Notes: generated by a model not told the origin, from the letters alone. A DNA stretch of 32,000 nucleotides from an archaeon (GCA_024275415.1 JAJRZD010000017.1:1-32000), one strand, 5' to 3'. Numbered from the stretch's first letter, positions 24,351 to 32,000 are shown. Made by a program: numbers and translations.

Positions 24351-24482
24351 CGGAAACTAACAAGGCCTAGTTTTCGTATTATGACCCATGCATGAGGTCA
24401 TATAAAGAGCGAAGGCTTTAAGGCTTAGTTCCGAGCATAGAAACAAGTGGCCGGATCTCTGTGACAGGGCCTAGTTTTCGTA
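24351..24482. repeat. Direct repeats GGCCTAGTTTTCGTA (24364-24378 and 24468-24482), with a degenerate copy at 24422-24433 and an inverted partial copy at 24351-24361
   Basis: Exact 15-bp duplication 104 bp apart, read directly. Confidence 0.85.
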
Positions 24483-24785
24483 AAAACGCGGACACTTTCG
24501 TTCGCGATGCGGAACATGCCCTCATTACACAAACTCCCCCCCTCCTACCACGATAGCCTTGTCATGGATCCGGTCACACCTTAATTATCGCACAAGAACA
24601 TTTCCCAACCCTCAGATACTGACACTGACCACAAACTCGAGCAGGCGGCCAGCAATATCCCTTTCCTCGAGGAAGCTGAACCCCCACGTCAACGTTTCAT
24701 CACGTGAAAGAAATTCGAGGGTTGGTAAAAATAAATGGAAACAACACATTCAAATGCGGAAAAAGCAGTAATAATTTCTGTCTGA

Positions 24786-24958
24786 GCACTTCGATTTTCG
24801 CTTAGCGTAGCGAAGTGCGGGACACTGAGGCCATCAGTCCGAGGGATTCCCCAAAATCCCTCACTCTCTGTTTTGGGGCGGAGATACACAGTCTTCCTAT
24901 GAGCTCTGCCTCGAGCGGGGCCATTCCTGCGTGCAGGAAGTGGATCCTCTCAAGGGTC
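24786..24958 (+). other. Cluster of consecutive stem-loops upstream of the accessory operon (possible structured leader, ncRNA or origin)
   Basis: GCACTTCG/CGAAGTGC (24786-24818); GGA(CA)CTGA/TCAGTCC (24820-24840); GAGGGATT/AATCCCTC (24841-24862); TTCCTGC-GT-GCAGGAA near 24923-24938; GATCCT/AGGGTC near 24942-24957. Confidence 0.55.
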
Positions 24959-24981
24959 TAGTGGGAAGGAGTTGATTCGAC

Positions 24982-26040
24982 ATGCCAAAACAAAAGAAAG
25001 TAACTGTCGTACACCGGCAGGACGTTCCTGCTGGAAAAATCATCGGACTAGCTCTTGTCGTGATGATCATTGTTGGAGCCGGCGTCGTTGGGATTATATT
25101 TTTGACCACCGGGCAACTGCCTAACTGGCCCGGAGGCACAGGTGGACAGAACACCAACACAACGACCACAACTACTACGACCACGCCGGGTGGTCAAGTG
25201 GCCACATTGACGTGGGAATTCACAGTCCCGGACAACTGGGGTTCAGGACTCGCCTCTGGGGTACATGTCCAGATACGGGGAGAGTCGGGAACACTTGAAG
25301 AAGGCGAAACGTCCTCATCAGGGATATTCACAACTAGCCTCTCATATACTAGCATGGAATACTATGATATTCTTATCGGGAACGGAACAGACGGCTGGGT
25401 GCCGTTCTGGTATCGGAATGTACAAGTCCCGTTATACAACGGGCTAGTCATATCTGGAGCGAAACACAGATCCACACTGTCGGCATATGACTTGGGCACA
25501 TTCTCTTTACAAATCACGTATGGTGCATCAAGGACTAGCATAGCAGATGGAGGCTCATGGAACAAGACCGCCGACGCGGACAAGCAAGAAACCTTCTACT
25601 TCACTGTCCGCAATACTGAAGCGGACAGCGGGTGGATGACATCGGACAACCCAATCTATGATGGTATAGGAGGGTTCGATGACCTACTGAGTAGCGCGGT
25701 GTTAGTTATCGCATTCAACGGGAGCGAGTATCAAGATGTTGAATGGACAAACAATCCATATCCGAGCGATAATGACGGCGCTCGTACAGAGTATTTCATC
25801 GCCCTATCTGATTCGGATGTGACCTACGACTTGGATGAGTATGGTCAGCCAATTTCATCTGGATCTCGTGAAGTGAGTGCGCTACTGGATTTCAGTAATG
25901 TTGCGGGAGCGACTGTGGATATCGTGTTCAGTCTGATTCTTGGTGTAGATGTGGCATGGTTGCAAGACCATACGGGTCTTCCAAGCTCGAGTGTCCAATG
26001 GACACAGCAGACGGACATGCTAATCAACATTGTCAACTAG
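24982..26040 (+). CDS. N-terminally anchored secreted protein with a Thr-rich linker; candidate major structural protein
   Basis: GGAGTTGA SD; basic N-terminus, TM helix, GGTGGQNTNTTTTTTTTTPGG linker, beta-rich acidic ectodomain with sequons; followed by a terminator-like hairpin. Confidence 0.8.
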   Translation: MPKQKKVTVVHRQDVPAGKIIGLALVVMIIVGAGVVGIIFLTTGQLPNWPGGTGGQNTNTTTTTTTTTPGGQVATLTWEFTVPDNWGSGLASGVHVQIRGESGTLEEGETSSSGIFTTSLSYTSMEYYDILIGNGTDGWVPFWYRNVQVPLYNGLVISGAKHRSTLSAYDLGTFSLQITYGASRTSIADGGSWNKTADADKQETFYFTVRNTEADSGWMTSDNPIYDGIGGFDDLLSSAVLVIAFNGSEYQDVEWTNNPYPSDNDGARTEYFIALSDSDVTYDLDEYGQPISSGSREVSALLDFSNVAGATVDIVFSLILGVDVAWLQDHTGLPSSSVQWTQQTDMLINIVN

Positions 26041-26067
26041 CCCTTCTGGGCTAGCCCTTCTCTTTTT
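26037..26067 (+). terminator. Intra-operon hairpin plus T-tract after the first operon gene
   Basis: CTAGCCC-TTCT-GGGCTAG (26037-26054) followed by CCCTTCTCTTTTT; CTAGCCCTTCT also occurs twice as an 11-bp direct repeat. Confidence 0.6.
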
Positions 26068-26080
26068 GGAGTTGATTAAT

Positions 26081-26743
26081 GTGCCAAAATCGAAGAGAAA
26101 GTCTCAAAGTAGAAGTTCACTGACACGAATGAGTGCCTGCGCAGGCATAGGGTCTTTTATGATCTCTCTCGTGATGCTGATGGTTCTGATAGGTCCGAGT
26201 CTCGGACTAACTGTTGTCGACAACACACCAGATGCGCCAACAGACCCTGTTTTTGATATCGCAGTGCGTATCTACGCGAACGGAATCTCGTACACTCCAA
26301 CTGAGTTCGACTCGGCTACGGTGTCTGGCATCATCACCATCTATGCTGACGTAATGCAAGGATCTGACATACCGTCGACTATCTTCATGGATGTGACACC
26401 TGACGGTGCGAACTCGCCGATGCTGTCTGCACCACTGCAACAATCAACATATGACCAGAATTCCTGGTCTGTCGAGTTCGACACGACTACAATTGAGGAT
26501 GGAGTCTACTGGTTCAAGGTCAAGGCAACTGGAACCAATTCGGCTGGAGACCCTGTGATAATACAGCTCGCAACATTTGGACTTTCCATGGATACAGGAC
26601 GAGGGACTGGAACGAGTGATGTGAACGGAGCTGACGTTGATACGACCGGTGTACTGTCGGGAATCCTTGGAATCATGGCTCTCGTCCTGATCTCACTTTT
26701 CATCTCGTTGGTCGTGCTATTCGGATTCGCCAAGATCGGGTGA
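26081..26743 (+). CDS. Membrane protein with N- and C-terminal TM helices and an Ig-like ectodomain
   Basis: Start reassigned to the GTG at 26081 (GGAGTTGA SD). Basic PKSKRK N-terminus, TM, beta-sandwich-like 'WSVEFDTTTIEDGVYWFKVKAT', C-terminal TM. Confidence 0.8.
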   Translation: MPKSKRKSQSRSSLTRMSACAGIGSFMISLVMLMVLIGPSLGLTVVDNTPDAPTDPVFDIAVRIYANGISYTPTEFDSATVSGIITIYADVMQGSDIPSTIFMDVTPDGANSPMLSAPLQQSTYDQNSWSVEFDTTTIEDGVYWFKVKATGTNSAGDPVIIQLATFGLSMDTGRGTGTSDVNGADVDTTGVLSGILGIMALVLISLFISLVVLFGFAKIG

Positions 26744-26789
26744 TACAATGCCGCGACAGGTAGGTCACAGATCAGCTAGGGAGGTTTCA

Positions 26790-27473
26790 ATGACCTCCCG
26801 CGATTTTTCTATCATTATAAACAAAGCCGATGTGATGCTCAGCATCTTCTCATTTGCCATTGCAATGTTCTTTATAACGGGATTTAGGTTATTTCCAGAA
26901 TACGCACAAATAGCGTGGATATTCCTCGGCTACCAACTAGCTGGCTGGGTGGGCATTATTGTCGAGGAACTTCTTTTGAGTTCGCGTACGAAAAATGACG
27001 CGATACGCATCTACAATTCAGAGCCGGACTTGGAGTACTGGTTGAATGTAGTCACGATTGGATTGCTTGTGTTCGTGGGAATCATAGTCGCGCAAGTCAT
27101 AACTTTCAGTCTTGATTTAAGTATCTCAACATTTCAGGATCTCAATGTCATTGACAGGCTCTTTGGTTTTCTAGCTGGCGACTCTGAAGAGGTGTTCTTC
27201 AGGGGTTTGCTCTTGCGCTGGACTCTTCGCGCCCTGCAGGCTGTTGATACGAGCTCCGCATTCCAACTCATAATGGTAATTGTAGCAGTCATCATCAATT
27301 CTACGATATTCGCAGTCATGCATGTGTTTGTATACGGCCAGGATTTCTCGAAGATCTTTGCAGTATTCGTGAGCACGATTCCAATCTGTGCTGGCTACCT
27401 CGCATCAAGAAGCATGACTTCCTCCAGAATCGGTCACATCATACTAAACGCAGGGCTAAGGGTGGTGATATAG
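26790..27473 (+). CDS. CPBP (CAAX/Rce1/Abi-type) intramembrane glutamic metalloprotease
   Basis: EEVFFRG (EExxxR), FAVMH (FxxxH) and HIILN (HxxxN) motifs. The ATG at 26790 follows GGAGG (track start 26748). Confidence 0.88.
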   Translation: MTSRDFSIIINKADVMLSIFSFAIAMFFITGFRLFPEYAQIAWIFLGYQLAGWVGIIVEELLLSSRTKNDAIRIYNSEPDLEYWLNVVTIGLLVFVGIIVAQVITFSLDLSISTFQDLNVIDRLFGFLAGDSEEVFFRGLLLRWTLRALQAVDTSSAFQLIMVIVAVIINSTIFAVMHVFVYGQDFSKIFAVFVSTIPICAGYLASRSMTSSRIGHIILNAGLRVVI

Positions 27474-28801
27474 TGCCAAAAAAGAAATCTAGGTCGCGCA
27501 AGTCGAAACGTAACGACCTGATCCAGTTCAGGACCTATGGTCTATTGATATTGACTGTATTCTTGATTGCTCTTATCGCCGGAACCATCGCGTTCACCAG
27601 GATGAGCACTGTTGACATACCTCTACGTTCGCGATGGCAAGTCGTGGCTGGACTCACACGTGTCGAACACAACGGCATCACATTAACTTCTACTGAAAGC
27701 TATCCTATGACGAATGATAGTTACTTTGGGGCTGCGCTTTCAAAATACAAGCTTCTAGATGGATCTGATTACACATACACCATAACACAACCACTGCCTC
27801 CATTCACGCAATATACCGCCGATATGCCTACCGAATGGTATCCTTACATAGGTTCTCCTAAGATACGGGTTCAAGTGTCAAACCCTGTACATGTGACGCG
27901 GACCCGCTCATTCAGTGGGTGGAGCAACTGGTATCCCGTCGATGATACTGAAGCATATCGCACGTACACTGTCGAGTTGAACGACACTATCATCAAGTAT
28001 GACCATCATGTGTATCTCGTCACAGTCGAGATGACAACCGAGGCAAGAGTGAAATTCATAGGAGGCATTCTGGGCCCACGTGTCGACGGCAACGAGTGGA
28101 TTGGGACATGCGAGGGTTTGCCACGCGTGAAAGAGGCATCGTTACGAGTGTTCTTCGAGTTCTCGCTGCCGACTTAGAGCATCAAAGTCGGCGACATCTG
28201 GCGAGAGAACGGCACAACATATGTCATCGGGGACACTTTCGCAGGAATAATGAGTGCCACAGTTGCACAGGTGGAACTTGGAACAGTCGCGGGATTCCCA
28301 GATGAGCACACATATGGCGGAAAAGTGATTGCAGGAAACACAGTCGGCTATCCCGTCAACATGTGGAACTTGACGACCAACACCTTTCTGCAGAATTTTT
28401 ACGACATTGCGGAGTCAGACAAGGAGTCCCTAGGCCAAATCCAAGATGTGCCTCGCAGTGTGGCAGTAGAGGTGGACGGCACGCTTCTGGCTGGCAGCTT
28501 GGTCGGACTGGAAGGATGGCCAATTCAGTACTGGGCATCTGTGGATCCAATCGACAAATTCCTGAAAACGACTATCAGAATAGATGTTCTCCAGATGCAC
28601 AAGAGCGTTCGGCTCTCTGGGGATCAACCGACCGCAAGCAATCCGCTCGGTGACAATCCGCCTGATGACCCTCCTGGATTATTCGAGTGGCTCGAAATTG
28701 ATCCAGTAGCGGGATTCATGATAGTCATTGCAGTGATTGGCATTCTCATAGCACTCGGGTTCGTGCTGATGATGTTCTCACGATTGATCAGGGGGATATA
28801 A
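27473..28801 (+). CDS. Double-anchored membrane protein interrupted by an in-frame TAG at 28175-28177 (442 aa if read through; otherwise 234-aa and 183-aa pieces)
   Basis: Track ORFs 27473-28177 and 28250-28801 share a frame. The 72 nt between them are open (SIKVGDIWRENGTTYVIGDTFAGI). The N-part carries the only N-terminal TM and the C-part the C-terminal TM. Confidence 0.75.
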
Positions 28802-28833
28802 CAATCGGACGACCAGCGCAGCACATCGAACAA

Positions 28834-29229
28834 ATGGTCTTGAGAACAGACTCTTCAGATGAAGATGTTTTTGCTGAGCTAAAACAGGATATCCTCATAG
28901 CAGTCATTCTACTCATACTGATGGCAATCGCGCATGAGCTTGGGCACTGGCTGGCATTCACGATCTGTCACTGGGAACTGCGCGATTACGGGTTCTATGC
29001 AACAATTCGCATCTCATGGATGGGCCTTGAAACTGTACCAAATAAGAAGATGTCAATCTTTGACCCACTCGTGACACTGGGAGGTCTGTTTGGGACATTG
29101 CCTTTCAGGCATTTGTGGGCGCGTGTGAGGGATTTTTCCAAGTCTGTAATATTCATCAGCATCGCCTATGGACTCGTCGAATCTTCGCTGTATTTCTTAG
29201 GAATGCCAATCGGAGCATTGATGAGGTGA
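28834..29229 (+). CDS. Small M50-like / zincin HExxH membrane metalloprotease
   Basis: AHELGHW lies in a TM helix; downstream 'LVTLGGLFG' resembles the M50 xAGP motif; further TM at the C-terminus. Confidence 0.65.
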   Translation: MVLRTDSSDEDVFAELKQDILIAVILLILMAIAHELGHWLAFTICHWELRDYGFYATIRISWMGLETVPNKKMSIFDPLVTLGGLFGTLPFRHLWARVRDFSKSVIFISIAYGLVESSLYFLGMPIGALMR

Positions 29230-29233
29230 TGGA

Positions 29234-32000
29234 ATGAAAAGAAGTATAATTGTCGGTATCATTGCGTTGTTAATCGTGCAGGGATTCAGTGTCATACCTC
29301 TCGACGAACCGACGCCAACATACCGAGGAATGACCGACGAGGCAACAAAATTCACTAAATTCGAAACAGCAGCGGACGGCGACATAAGTAACCAAAGCAT
29401 CACACAGTTTTCTGAAACGCTGCCAGACGATGTGATGTTGTTTCCAGACCAGAACATTTCAACATGGTTTGATGATGCGAATGCAGAATACACTCATCAA
29501 GGCTCAATTAGTGGAGACTACACGGACACATTCGTGAACGACGGAGTCTATCACTATGTGGCAAACATCGGTGGTAGCAGTATCGAATACACATTCGTGC
29601 TGCCTTCCTCCGTCGCGACATTGCACAAACCGTTGCAAGTAAGATGGAATGGTAAAATCGGAGGCAGCTCTTCCAATCCACACGAAGCCAAAATTTCAAT
29701 TTGGGATTGGTCAACATCATCGTATGACACGCTGCAGGGCTGGACTGTAGTAACAAAGAACACAGAATTCACGTGGACAGATGACATAAGCACGGATTCG
29801 AACTGGTACACGACCGATGTTGATGGCAACATAACTCTAAGAATACGAGTTGACGGGCGAAACAACGATGTGTCTTGGAACTGCATTACATACGTAGATG
29901 AACTCGCCGTTGAATACTATCGTCCTGGCTCATTCGACGAGGACTTCACAGACATATCTGACTGGATCGCATATCAGACAGAAGACCCAGGTGACACCAT
30001 CACTACTGATGGTGATGTCCTCAACATAACAGGGGAATACAAAGGAACCTCGACTGATTATGACTATTATTACACTAATGCCGTATCAATTTCGGATGCA
30101 TCGTCATATTACATAGAATACCGTGCATATAAACCAAAATTCGCGGGTGTTAATGGCCCGTATATCTGCTTCTTCTCTGCTGATGACCTATCTGGCAGTT
30201 ATGGAAAGGCAGTAATGCCGATTTCTGGAAGTGAATACACTACATATAGATACATTCTATCAGATTTTGGCGTGACTGGGGAAATTGAATCGTTTTACAT
30301 CACAGCCTACACAAATACGGCGGGCGAAGAATGGGAAATGAATTTCGACTACATCCGAATTTTCCAATCGAACGAATCCGGATGGGCGCACGATGGAAGC
30401 ACGACAGAATCCATCGGACTGGGAGCCTATGCATCCATTTCCTCGGACGGCGATGTATTGACGTTCACAGAAACAGCGAACGCACAGGCATTTGATTTTT
30501 GGATAGACTACACATCAACGAATGCTAAAATTAGCACATCTGATTATCAGTTCTTAGAATTCAAAATAGACTCTACGACGAGCGGGGACGGAGACACAAG
30601 GACATACTTGCCAAGAGTCTATGAGGACACATCAACTTACGTGAACATCTTTGATTACGTCAATGACACAGGTGTTTTCAGATTCAATTTGAAAGCCGCT
30701 GGTTTGTCATATGTACGAAACATCAGGTTTTATCTCGAAGATGCATCTGACTCGTTCACACTCGATTATATCAAGATCTATTCTATTGCGGGTTTCAAAG
30801 TCACCGAATCATCTACAACAACAAATGATGTGATTCATGTTGACAATGGTATTTTGAAATCATCAATCGATTCTGGTTTTTTTGTCTTGAACCGAGAACC
30901 ATCAACACAATTTGATTCGAGTGTGTATAATGTCGTGAATGTGACAGCATCACAATATTCATCATTAGACTATGTGAAGATTACTTACAGCGATGGTCTT
31001 TTATCTGCACCAATTTACTTCACACGTGGAACAACATTCACAGCTGGAAAAGGACCAAATACGTTAGATTTTTACTTCACCTTGAGGGACAATAGTTCAA
31101 TCTCCGCCATCGAGTTCTGGAGCGACTCAACTCCGCCAAGCGTCCAGGAGAAGTACAGTAATCCTCGGGATCCGACGACCGCTGATAATGTCACAATAGA
31201 GGTGCAATCAAATGATATTGTTGGACTCTATACCTGTACAGCAAGAATTCTTGAACAACCCGATAGTTCGTCATTGTCGGATATATCATTGGCATTAGAA
31301 TACACAGGTTCATCAGGACTGGAATTATGGAGCTATACTATTGGCAGCAATTCACTCAGTGCCGGTAGATATTTGTTCGAGATTGACGCCTTTGATGGTG
31401 CCAACCACGACTACGCATTTCTTTCATTCACTGTCACAGAAGACTATCGTTTGACACGCATCAGGATTCGATCTAATCTCATCGGCGTGGATCAGTACAT
31501 CCCCTTCGAGCAGTTCGATGTGTATCTGAATGGTTCATTGTTATTGGACAACATCTTCGAAGCAGACACGTCGAAAGCGTACAACATAACGGTGAAGGAC
31601 CGCTGGGCCAATACTCTAAACTCTACTGTGTTTGCATGGTCAGCGGACATTGTGATTGACGTTCCTGTGTATTCACTCAAAGTCGTGTCCTGGTACGAGG
31701 ACTTCGTGTACTTCAATCTTACACGTGGGGGTACCGAATATTCAGAGGTAATTACTCCACTCGACACGGTTCCGTTCCTCCTCTTCCAGGGTAATTATAC
31801 ATGGGAAACAGATTACCGGAATGGTTCTGTGATTTCCGGCTCTCTTTCACTGACACGTTCTGACGCGATAGTGATTACTGGGAATACAATCGCGGATTTA
31901 GCAAGCCTTTCGACCTCCATATTGAACATGACGACAACCATCAATGTGACCGTGACCACGACACAGAATCAAGTCATCTCGATATCTATCGACCTCACAA
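29234..32000 (+). CDS. Large secreted adhesin/spike-like glycoprotein, 3'-partial (>922 aa); missing from the ORF track
   Basis: ATG at 29234 follows GAGGTGA. I translated the frame by hand and found no stop to the window end. Signal peptide MKRSIIVGIIALLIVQG, ~140-aa internal repeats, about 17 NxS/T sequons. Confidence 0.9.
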   Translation, partial: MKRSIIVGIIALLIVQGFSVIPLDEPTPTYRGMTDEATKFTKFETAADGDISNQSITQFSETLPDDVMLFPDQNISTWFDDANAEYTHQGSISGDYTDTFVNDGVYHYVANIGGSSIEYTFVLPSSVATLHKPLQVRWNGKIGGSSSNPHEAKISIWDWSTSSYDTLQGWTVVTKNTEFTWTDDISTDSNWYTTDVDGNITLRIRVDGRNNDVSWNCITYVDELAVEYYRPGSFDEDFTDISDWIAYQTEDPGDTITTDGDVLNITGEYKGTSTDYDYYYTNAVSISDASSYYIEYRAYKPKFAGVNGPYICFFSADDLSGSYGKAVMPISGSEYTTYRYILSDFGVTGEIESFYITAYTNTAGEEWEMNFDYIRIFQSNESGWAHDGSTTESIGLGAYASISSDGDVLTFTETANAQAFDFWIDYTSTNAKISTSDYQFLEFKIDSTTSGDGDTRTYLPRVYEDTSTYVNIFDYVNDTGVFRFNLKAAGLSYVRNIRFYLEDASDSFTLDYIKIYSIAGFKVTESSTTTNDVIHVDNGILKSSIDSGFFVLNREPSTQFDSSVYNVVNVTASQYSSLDYVKITYSDGLLSAPIYFTRGTTFTAGKGPNTLDFYFTLRDNSSISAIEFWSDSTPPSVQEKYSNPRDPTTADNVTIEVQSNDIVGLYTCTARILEQPDSSSLSDISLALEYTGSSGLELWSYTIGSNSLSAGRYLFEIDAFDGANHDYAFLSFTVTEDYRLTRIRIRSNLIGVDQYIPFEQFDVYLNGSLLLDNIFEADTSKAYNITVKDRWANTLNSTVFAWSADIVIDVPVYSLKVVSWYEDFVYFNLTRGGTEYSEVITPLDTVPFLLFQGNYTWETDYRNGSVISGSLSLTRSDAIVITGNTIADLASLSTSILNMTTTINVTVTTTQNQVISISIDLT

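Follow-up and report, generated by a model that had tools for sequence, protein, structure and literature searches.

An integrated element of a Thorarchaeota genome with a membrane, spike and ATPase gene module, most likely a capsid-less provirus

Wyrdviruses are spindle-shaped viruses of Asgard archaea (Medvedeva et al., bioRxiv 10.1101/2021.07.29.453957). A 20.8-kb circular element of Atabeyarchaeia, which encodes seven transmembrane (TM) proteins, a CAAX-like protease, a ParB-like NTPase and an integrase, has been called a plasmid (Valentin-Alvarado et al. 2024, PMC11529989), and in the same study the 26.3-kb 'Guacar' element was left unclassified, its authors being undecided between virus and plasmid (PMC11529989). 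For Thorarchaeota, only a tailed virus and some CRISPR-targeted contigs are named in the literature that we searched. The locus described here lies in a stretch of 32,000 nucleotides (nt) of archaeal DNA (GCA_024275415.1, JAJRZD010000017.1:1-32000; hereafter the window), which forms positions 1-32000 of the 107-kb contig C119; numbers above 32000 are contig coordinates and continue the window numbering. From position 24982 to its end the window holds an operon of membrane protein genes (g1 to g7), and this operon forms the left end of a mobile element of 24.6 kb that is integrated in a Thorarchaeota (Asgard) chromosome. We regard it as the particle-building (envelope) module of a temperate mobile element that is particle-forming and virus-like, most likely a capsid-less provirus, and put the probability of this reading at roughly 60%. 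A sequence-only reading of the window had left the choice between a provirus and a host-encoded surface system. The mobile element is now established and the host system effectively excluded, while the preference for an enveloped virus over an integrative plasmid is one that we infer from the gene layout and the conserved module.

The element is bounded by two copies of a perfect 50-bp direct repeat, the attachment sites attL and attR (Table 1), and a further CACACCTT is common to both ends, at 24575-24582 near attL. Upstream of 24170 the genes are of host type (cystathionine enzymes, DUF3160, a Na/H exchanger and a radical SAM protein). Beyond the window, where the sequence-only reading had proposed to look for an integrase, an ATPase and att sites, there are indeed a tyrosine integrase, a P-loop ATPase and a ParB-like protein, with att repeats flanking the whole. 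The integrase gene starts inside attR. A split integrase of the SSV type was considered and is rejected, since the joined ends translate with a stop codon inside att. At the 5' end of the integrase gene and within att (49101-49169), TGCCCTCAT occurs as a direct repeat in three copies (at 49101, 49129 and 49161, with a spacing of 28 and 32 nt; 0.18 expected by chance), which may be candidate recombinase-binding or operator/regulator sites.

Among the genomes of relatives, element DNA was detected in none of 85 others of the same family, and a full-length copy of the ATPase gene in one of these 85 and in none of six genomes of the same genus. The operon is thus not a fixture of one locus in all relatives, and mobility genes accompany it; the element as such occurs in no other same-genus or same-family genome among those searched, which argues for a recent insertion. 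In two genomes of the same genus, G005 and G001, the left-flank gene is the same and the att sequence comes after it; at the G005 site a nitroreductase-like gene and a giant host protein, with no mobile-element genes, come after att. The right flank is not syntenic between genomes, so that G005 gives no exact empty site.

No tRNA was found near the element ends. What serves as integration target, in lieu of a tRNA gene, is a structured RNA-like element of about 100 nt that covaries and is so far undescribed; the mobile element sits at the 3' part of this small structured RNA gene. The copy at attL folds at -50.9 kcal/mol (z = -5.2) and that of G005 with z = -6.45; attR alone folds no better than shuffles. 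The att core, which lies in an element of ~100 nt, occurs in several copies per genome, at 90-98% identity, in each of the 24 same-family genomes from the first search. In the closing helix, compensatory changes were observed in eight of nine predicted pairs (19 sequences, orthologues and paralogues), and these 19 copies form two paralogous groups with an invariant C-rich core. One paralogue lies in the source genome (G000:C127:8335-8520, minus strand) and 17 copies lie in relatives (L054-L073); the att region matched no Rfam family. In attL the 3' strand of the helix complements the source genome's own variable 5' strand, and the crossover therefore probably occurred in the shared CACACCTT at the 3' end, not in the 50-bp block. 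The source copy also possesses an extra 29-nt hairpin (24484-24512, CGCGGAC...GUUCGCG), which G005 and G001 do not have and which may be an intron-like insertion.

Partial copies of the target RNA with identical non-host sequence on one side were found on different contigs (L074 at G020:C16:~869, L075 at G020:C2:~1041 and L078 on G006:C581); within 9 kb of these partial copies there are no homologues of the element proteins. The G020 and G006 junctions suggest that the same RNA family is also the insertion target of other elements.

The operon had been described as a set of co-oriented and tightly coupled genes, most of them with Shine-Dalgarno (SD) sites, whose products are all TM or secreted proteins and none metabolic, and this description is borne out. 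Seven open reading frames (ORFs) run on the plus strand from 24982 to the window end, separated by no more than 73 nt or overlapping slightly, and the TAG/GTG overlap reported at 27473 is real and one base long. SD-like GGAG/GGTGA motifs stand upstream of g1, g3, g4 and g7, TM segments are predicted in every product from g1 to g7, and Pfam finds no metabolic domain in any of them. Past the window the operon continues with five more genes after g7, the last being the ATPase gene, which ends at 36773.

Table 1. Features of the integrated element and its left junction; aa, amino acids; 2-TM, with two hydrophobic helices; HTH, helix-turn-helix
Feature	Position	Strand	Description
Structured RNA-like element	24447-24582	+	Host element at the left junction; long closing helix
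attL	24513-24562	.	Left copy of perfect 50-bp direct repeat
g1	24982-26040	+	352 aa; basic N-tail, one TM anchor, poly-Thr linker, all-beta ectodomain
g2	26030-26743	+	237 aa; basic N-tail; TM segments at N- and C-terminus; homologues in L025 and L034
g3	26748-27473	+	241 aa; CPBP (Rce1-like) glutamic intramembrane protease
g4	27473-28177	+	234 aa; very basic N-tail and TM anchor; front half of TAG-cut gene
g5	28250-28801	+	183 aa; C-terminal TM anchor; back half of TAG-cut gene, same frame; weak SD
g6	28834-29229	+	131 aa; small membrane protein with HELGH within TM helix; putative metallopeptidase
g7	29234-32782	+	1182 aa; spike or adhesin; runs past the window end at 32000
g8	32785-33048	+	87 aa; two hydrophobic helices (2-TM)
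g9	33041-33601	+	186-aa 2-TM protein
g10	33594-34436	+	280-aa C-anchored protein
g11	~34433-34921	+	Protein of ~163 aa
ATPase-HTH-nuclease-like protein	34896-36773	+	625 aa; Walker A and Walker B motifs
Cargo block, three genes	36940-39285	+	First product matches PADLOC PDC-M19A
Regulator pair, divergent, small	40876-41160 and 41255-41488	- and +	60% and 51% identical in G010
ParB-like protein	42009-43892	+	Profile match
Tyrosine integrase	47932-49176	-	Pfam Phage_integrase, 44.5 bits vs cut-off 27.1
attR	49157-49206	.	Right copy of perfect 50-bp direct repeat; beyond the window

The first gene product, g1, is a candidate abundant envelope protein. Its homologues number only two among 5.8 billion proteins, plus one counterpart in G010, a genome of another genus, and its AlphaFold2 (AF2) model is of low confidence (pLDDT, the predicted local distance difference test score, of 48.5) and too poor for a structure search. 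Very basic tails precede the TM anchor in g1, g2 and g4 as well as in their counterparts, and would face the cytoplasm or the particle lumen. A single in-frame TAG at 28175-28177 divides one envelope gene into g4 and g5: at this position G010 has one shorter ORF and the related contigs L025 and L034 one gene each (441 and 452 aa), residues 248-424 of the L025 protein being the part to which g5 aligns. Translation of the TAG as pyrrolysine is rejected, as PylB was not found in the source genome (93% complete), and we read the codon as a nonsense mutation or a recent split.

Two intramembrane proteases had been proposed for the operon, of which g3 stands and g6 does not reach the threshold. g3 matches Pfam PF02517 (38.7 bits, cut-off 22.4, E = 1.2e-9) with the catalytic motifs EExxxR, FxxxH and HxxxN intact (SEEVFFRG, FAVMH and HIILN), and the first Glu, both His and the Asn are conserved in all four homologues. 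The nearest named CPBP models are the myxosortase-type Mrt models of NCBIfam, all of them below cut-off (the best, MrtJ, with 30.5 vs 75 bits). By comparison, g6 scores 16.4 bits against M50 (site-2 protease; cut-off 27.2), shows no LDG-type motif and has no NCBIfam match. Its HExxH is kept in the counterpart of G010 only and is absent in L025; in L034 the same slot is occupied by an archaeal signal peptidase I (67.5 bits vs cut-off 51.85). The slot before the spike thus holds either an HExxH protein (in the source genome and G010) or a signal peptidase I (L034), which points to processing enzymes that are the element's own and interchangeable.

The giant adhesin of the sequence-only reading is g7, which has beta domains rich in sequons and nine repeats of 18 residues, in addition to a signal peptide and a C-terminal TM anchor. 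With 29 N-x-S/T sequons, i.e. 2.5 per 100 aa vs a genome mean of 0.63, it is the only sequon-rich product of the operon. Consequently the term 'glycoproteins', which had been applied to the operon products, is probably right for g7 and, owing to the poly-Thr linker, for g1, and extends to no other product. Homologues of g7 fall into 16 clusters, all unnamed, and searches of Pfam, PDB sequences and PHROG gave no match.

Between the spike and the ATPase the block of small membrane proteins is also recognizable elsewhere: counterparts of g8 with 81-96 aa follow the spike gene directly in L025, L034 and G010, and the more distant locus G235 has a 70-aa 2-TM ORF within its spike-to-ATPase block. 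The AF2 model of the ATPase (pLDDT 60, moderate) returned only generic RecA-like, HTH and PD-(D/E)xK-like matches, and a search of PDB sequences returned none. Six residues, K148, D198, E199, E489, D523 and K540, are invariant or nearly so in 61 ATPase relatives. The union of ATPase, DNA-binding and nuclease-like domains recalls a terminase in function, and we infer from it no family assignment. The C-terminal nuclease-like domain is also found by itself, in stand-alone or broken copies, at G000:C4:5-337 and at loci of G012, G046 and G084 (L015-L021), with internal stops in some of these copies.

Pfam, PHROGs and NCBIfam scans of the element proteins gave only CPBP, integrase, ParB-like and HTH matches. 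Of the three cargo genes, the first encodes a product similar to the PADLOC candidate defence family PDC-M19A (E = 3.6e-11), the other two products being unmatched, and an HTH protein is also encoded between the cargo genes and the integrase region.

Eight diverged relatives retain spike and ATPase (G010, L025, L034, L026, G113, G235, G385 and L052), and the closer ones additionally the 2-TM protein and the remaining genes between these two. G010, L025, L034 and L026 share the order g1, g2, CPBP protease, g4/5, spike, 280-aa protein and ATPase, at 22-58% identity. The gene set of G010, which matches at 22-30% identity, comprises an N-anchored 323-aa protein, a 184-aa protein, a CPBP protease, an N- and C-anchored protein, a 1149-aa spike, a 96-aa 2-TM protein, a 114-aa HEGAH protein, a 339-aa protein and the ATPase, together with the regulator pair (51-60% identity) and an integrase; direct repeats flanking the G010 element were not found in the ranges tried. 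L025 (a 23-kb JGI contig) and L034 (an 18-kb Logan contig) have the same gene order at 30-58% identity, and L026 (an 18.2-kb contig of a Thorarchaeota metagenome-assembled genome) joins the module to ~22 small minus-strand ORFs. At the distant loci (G113, G235, G385 and L052) at least one giant anchored protein and small TM proteins are encoded ahead of the ATPase, and G235 also carries a CPBP homologue. The ATPase profile recovered 149 clusters among 1.84 billion representatives, and members in nine of 400 Asgard genomes from five taxonomic families.

Outside the module the elements differ, with PCNA and ParB in L052, HNH and a methyltransferase-like gene in L034 and arrays of small ORFs in L026. 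The integrase is present in some related elements and absent in others; in L034 it immediately precedes the g1 homologue, an arrangement to be expected if the form is circular. L052 and L053 represent one 19.4-kb molecule in two assemblies, offset by 686 bp and with contig ends not visible, and this offset suggests a circle. The leader before g1 (24840-24981) and the stretch L034:6000-6164 share the motif CTCACTCTCTGTTT(T)GGGG, preceded by a complementary CCCC run, and a hairpin-rich leader may thus be conserved.

What is conserved across the relatives is therefore the membrane/spike/ATPase module, replication and maintenance genes being variable, and the gene order matches the published adhesin-conserved block-ATPase layout of wyrdviruses (10.1101/2021.07.29.453957) and likewise the order of pleolipoviruses. 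Both features argue for a provirus. Several results count on the other side. No match to a PHROG, a Pfam virion family, an INPHARED genome or an IMG/VR contig was obtained for the queries sent, which included a PHROG scan of ten proteins from g1 to the ATPase (E <= 0.01), tblastn of the ATPase and the spike against 50,697 phage and archaeal-virus records of INPHARED, and IMG/VR scans with three ATPases and one alignment; tblastn of a distant ATPase against INPHARED phage records was likewise without match. Alignment of g8 with His1 VP21 by hhalign gave a probability of 1.7%, from a shallow profile (4 sequences). Among the 61 ATPase members none matched PF05707 (pI/Zot); a language-model lead from the ATPase to pI/Zot-like proteins is weak (0.82), the fold matches of the ATPase are generic RecA-like, and look-ups in the ESM Atlas gave leads below 0.85 only. 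The capsid, portal, terminase and FtsK-type packaging ATPase families that mark tailed (HK97) or double-jelly-roll viruses were all absent from the Pfam, PHROGs and NCBIfam scans of the element proteins. Nor does any spacer of the source genome match the element, its 83 repeat-spacer units sharing only chance matches of 11-15 nt with it; two CRISPR-repeat scans of genome contigs yielded nothing useful. Finally, a ParB-like gene belongs to the backbone, the stop codon between g4 and g5 means that this copy may be partly defective, and similar Asgard elements have been published as plasmid or unclassified (PMC11529989). As there is no sequence link to a known virus, a virus is the favoured reading, not a proven one.

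A provirus of this kind would work as follows. g1, g2 and g4/g5 would insert in the host membrane with their strongly basic tails directed toward the cytoplasm, later the particle lumen, where these tails could hold the element DNA. g7 would be exported, glycosylated and anchored by its C-terminal helix, and could serve as attachment or fusion spike. The CPBP protease g3 would trim anchors or signal sequences of these proteins, together with a second, exchangeable peptidase (an HExxH protein here, but signal peptidase I in L034), g8 together with g9-g11 might form the assembly site, and the ATPase-HTH-nuclease would recognise, move and cut the element DNA. Particles could then leave by budding without lysis, as pleolipoviruses and spindle-shaped viruses do.

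More tentatively, and at somewhat less than even odds for the whole, the element could be an integrated virus and the founding member of a family, as yet undescribed, whose viruses infect Thorarchaeota and other Asgard archaea without lysis. Their particles would be lipid envelopes whose building blocks are anchored proteins with basic tails, a small protein of two helices and a giant spike that is glycosylated. Such viruses would bring their own enzymes for processing envelope proteins (a CPBP sorting-type protease and a swappable signal or metallo-peptidase), would possess a terminase-like ATPase-HTH-nuclease and would integrate not into a tRNA gene but into structured RNA genes of a hitherto unknown family.

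Among the alternatives, an integrative plasmid fares best, unlikely as we consider it. Its membrane module would be a conjugation-like or vesicle-based transfer apparatus (compare plasmid vesicles) that makes no true virion, and the ATPase-HTH-nuclease would act much as a relaxase or coupling protein does, processing the DNA to be transferred. A ParB-like partition protein within the conserved backbone, the lack of a recognised capsid protein and the published plasmid status of the 20.8-kb Atabeyarchaeia element, which is similar in content (PMC11529989), are what such a plasmid would lead one to expect. However, neither VirB4 nor TraG nor a relaxase family was found, and a constant membrane/spike/ATPase module amid varying replication and maintenance genes is the pattern of pleolipoviruses and wyrdviruses, not that of plasmid families.

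A decaying, domesticated remnant, whose surface genes serve the host (in surface remodelling or the exclusion of related elements) and build no particles, seems improbable to us. The in-frame TAG in g4/g5, for which the genome offers no pyrrolysine pathway, and the candidate defence gene would fit it, as would the CPBP protease, given that immunity proteins are a frequent role of the CPBP family (PF02517). Yet the att repeats are perfect over 50 bp, the integrase is intact, all remaining module genes are open, and the element is in no close relative searched. Least credible of all is a host-encoded, self-processing surface structure (S-layer, pilus or adhesion system), as all the products, proteases included, might suggest by being membrane or secreted proteins, for the operon lies between att repeats together with an integrase, occurs in none of the six same-genus and one of the 85 family genomes, and matched no S-layer or pilin family.

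Returning to the element as a provirus, no formal description of its family was found in the literature searched. It is of a temperate, capsid-less archaeal type with several unusual parts, and its family is rare. The locus provides a complete and precisely bounded element, along with a set of relatives that define a membrane-based morphogenesis module with its own proteases. It thereby makes testable how particles are built on and released from Asgard membranes, what role CPBP proteases play on mobile elements and what the target RNA is, and it can act as a reference point in the classification of Asgard elements that earlier publications left as 'virus or plasmid'.

The CPBP protease invites comparison with the CTERM-sorting myxosortase/Mrt proteases, which are also of CPBP type (PMC11980579; NF040914, NF033192), as g3 stands beside several proteins that end in a TM helix and a basic tail. 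However, g3 scores 24-31 bits against curated cut-offs of 75-250 bits, no common C-terminal signature motif was seen in g2, g5, g7 and g10, and the context here is a mobile element instead of a cellular sorting system.

With the Atabeyarchaeia elements, which we compared from the text of the paper (PMC11529989) and not from sequences, the element shares Asgard hosts and a size of 20-26 kb. Common to the gene content are numerous TM proteins, giant ones of 1200-1400 aa, a protease of the CAAX-like kind, a ParB-like protein and a tyrosine recombinase. Those elements have been described as free circles targeted by CRISPR, whereas the copy described here is integrated in a Thorarchaeota genome at defined att sites.

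The Pleolipoviridae (HRPV-1, provirus Halfvol1) are temperate, capsid-less and membrane-enveloped, as the present element would be, and it corresponds to them in its order of membrane protein, spike (with signal peptide and C-terminal anchor), small ORFs and NTPase, in its variable replication module and in integration by a tyrosine integrase. They differ in infecting another host phylum and show no PHROG or tblastn similarity; the spike here is two to three times larger, and proteases and the fusion of ATPase and nuclease are added.

Wyrdviruses, compared by published description and not by sequence, likewise have Asgard hosts, genomes of 15-26 kb and replication modules that vary between members. 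They too possess a large adhesin gene, a conserved block of genes of no assigned function, a soluble P-loop ATPase and a protein of ~80 aa with two hydrophobic helices, to which g8 corresponds by size, topology and position. In contrast to them, the element has no detectable similarity to the His1-type capsid protein and, in the 61 ATPase members, no Zot/pI match. Its ATPase bears an extra HTH and a nuclease-like domain, and to the shared layout the Thorarchaeota element adds a CPBP protease, several N-anchored proteins with basic tails and an integrase.

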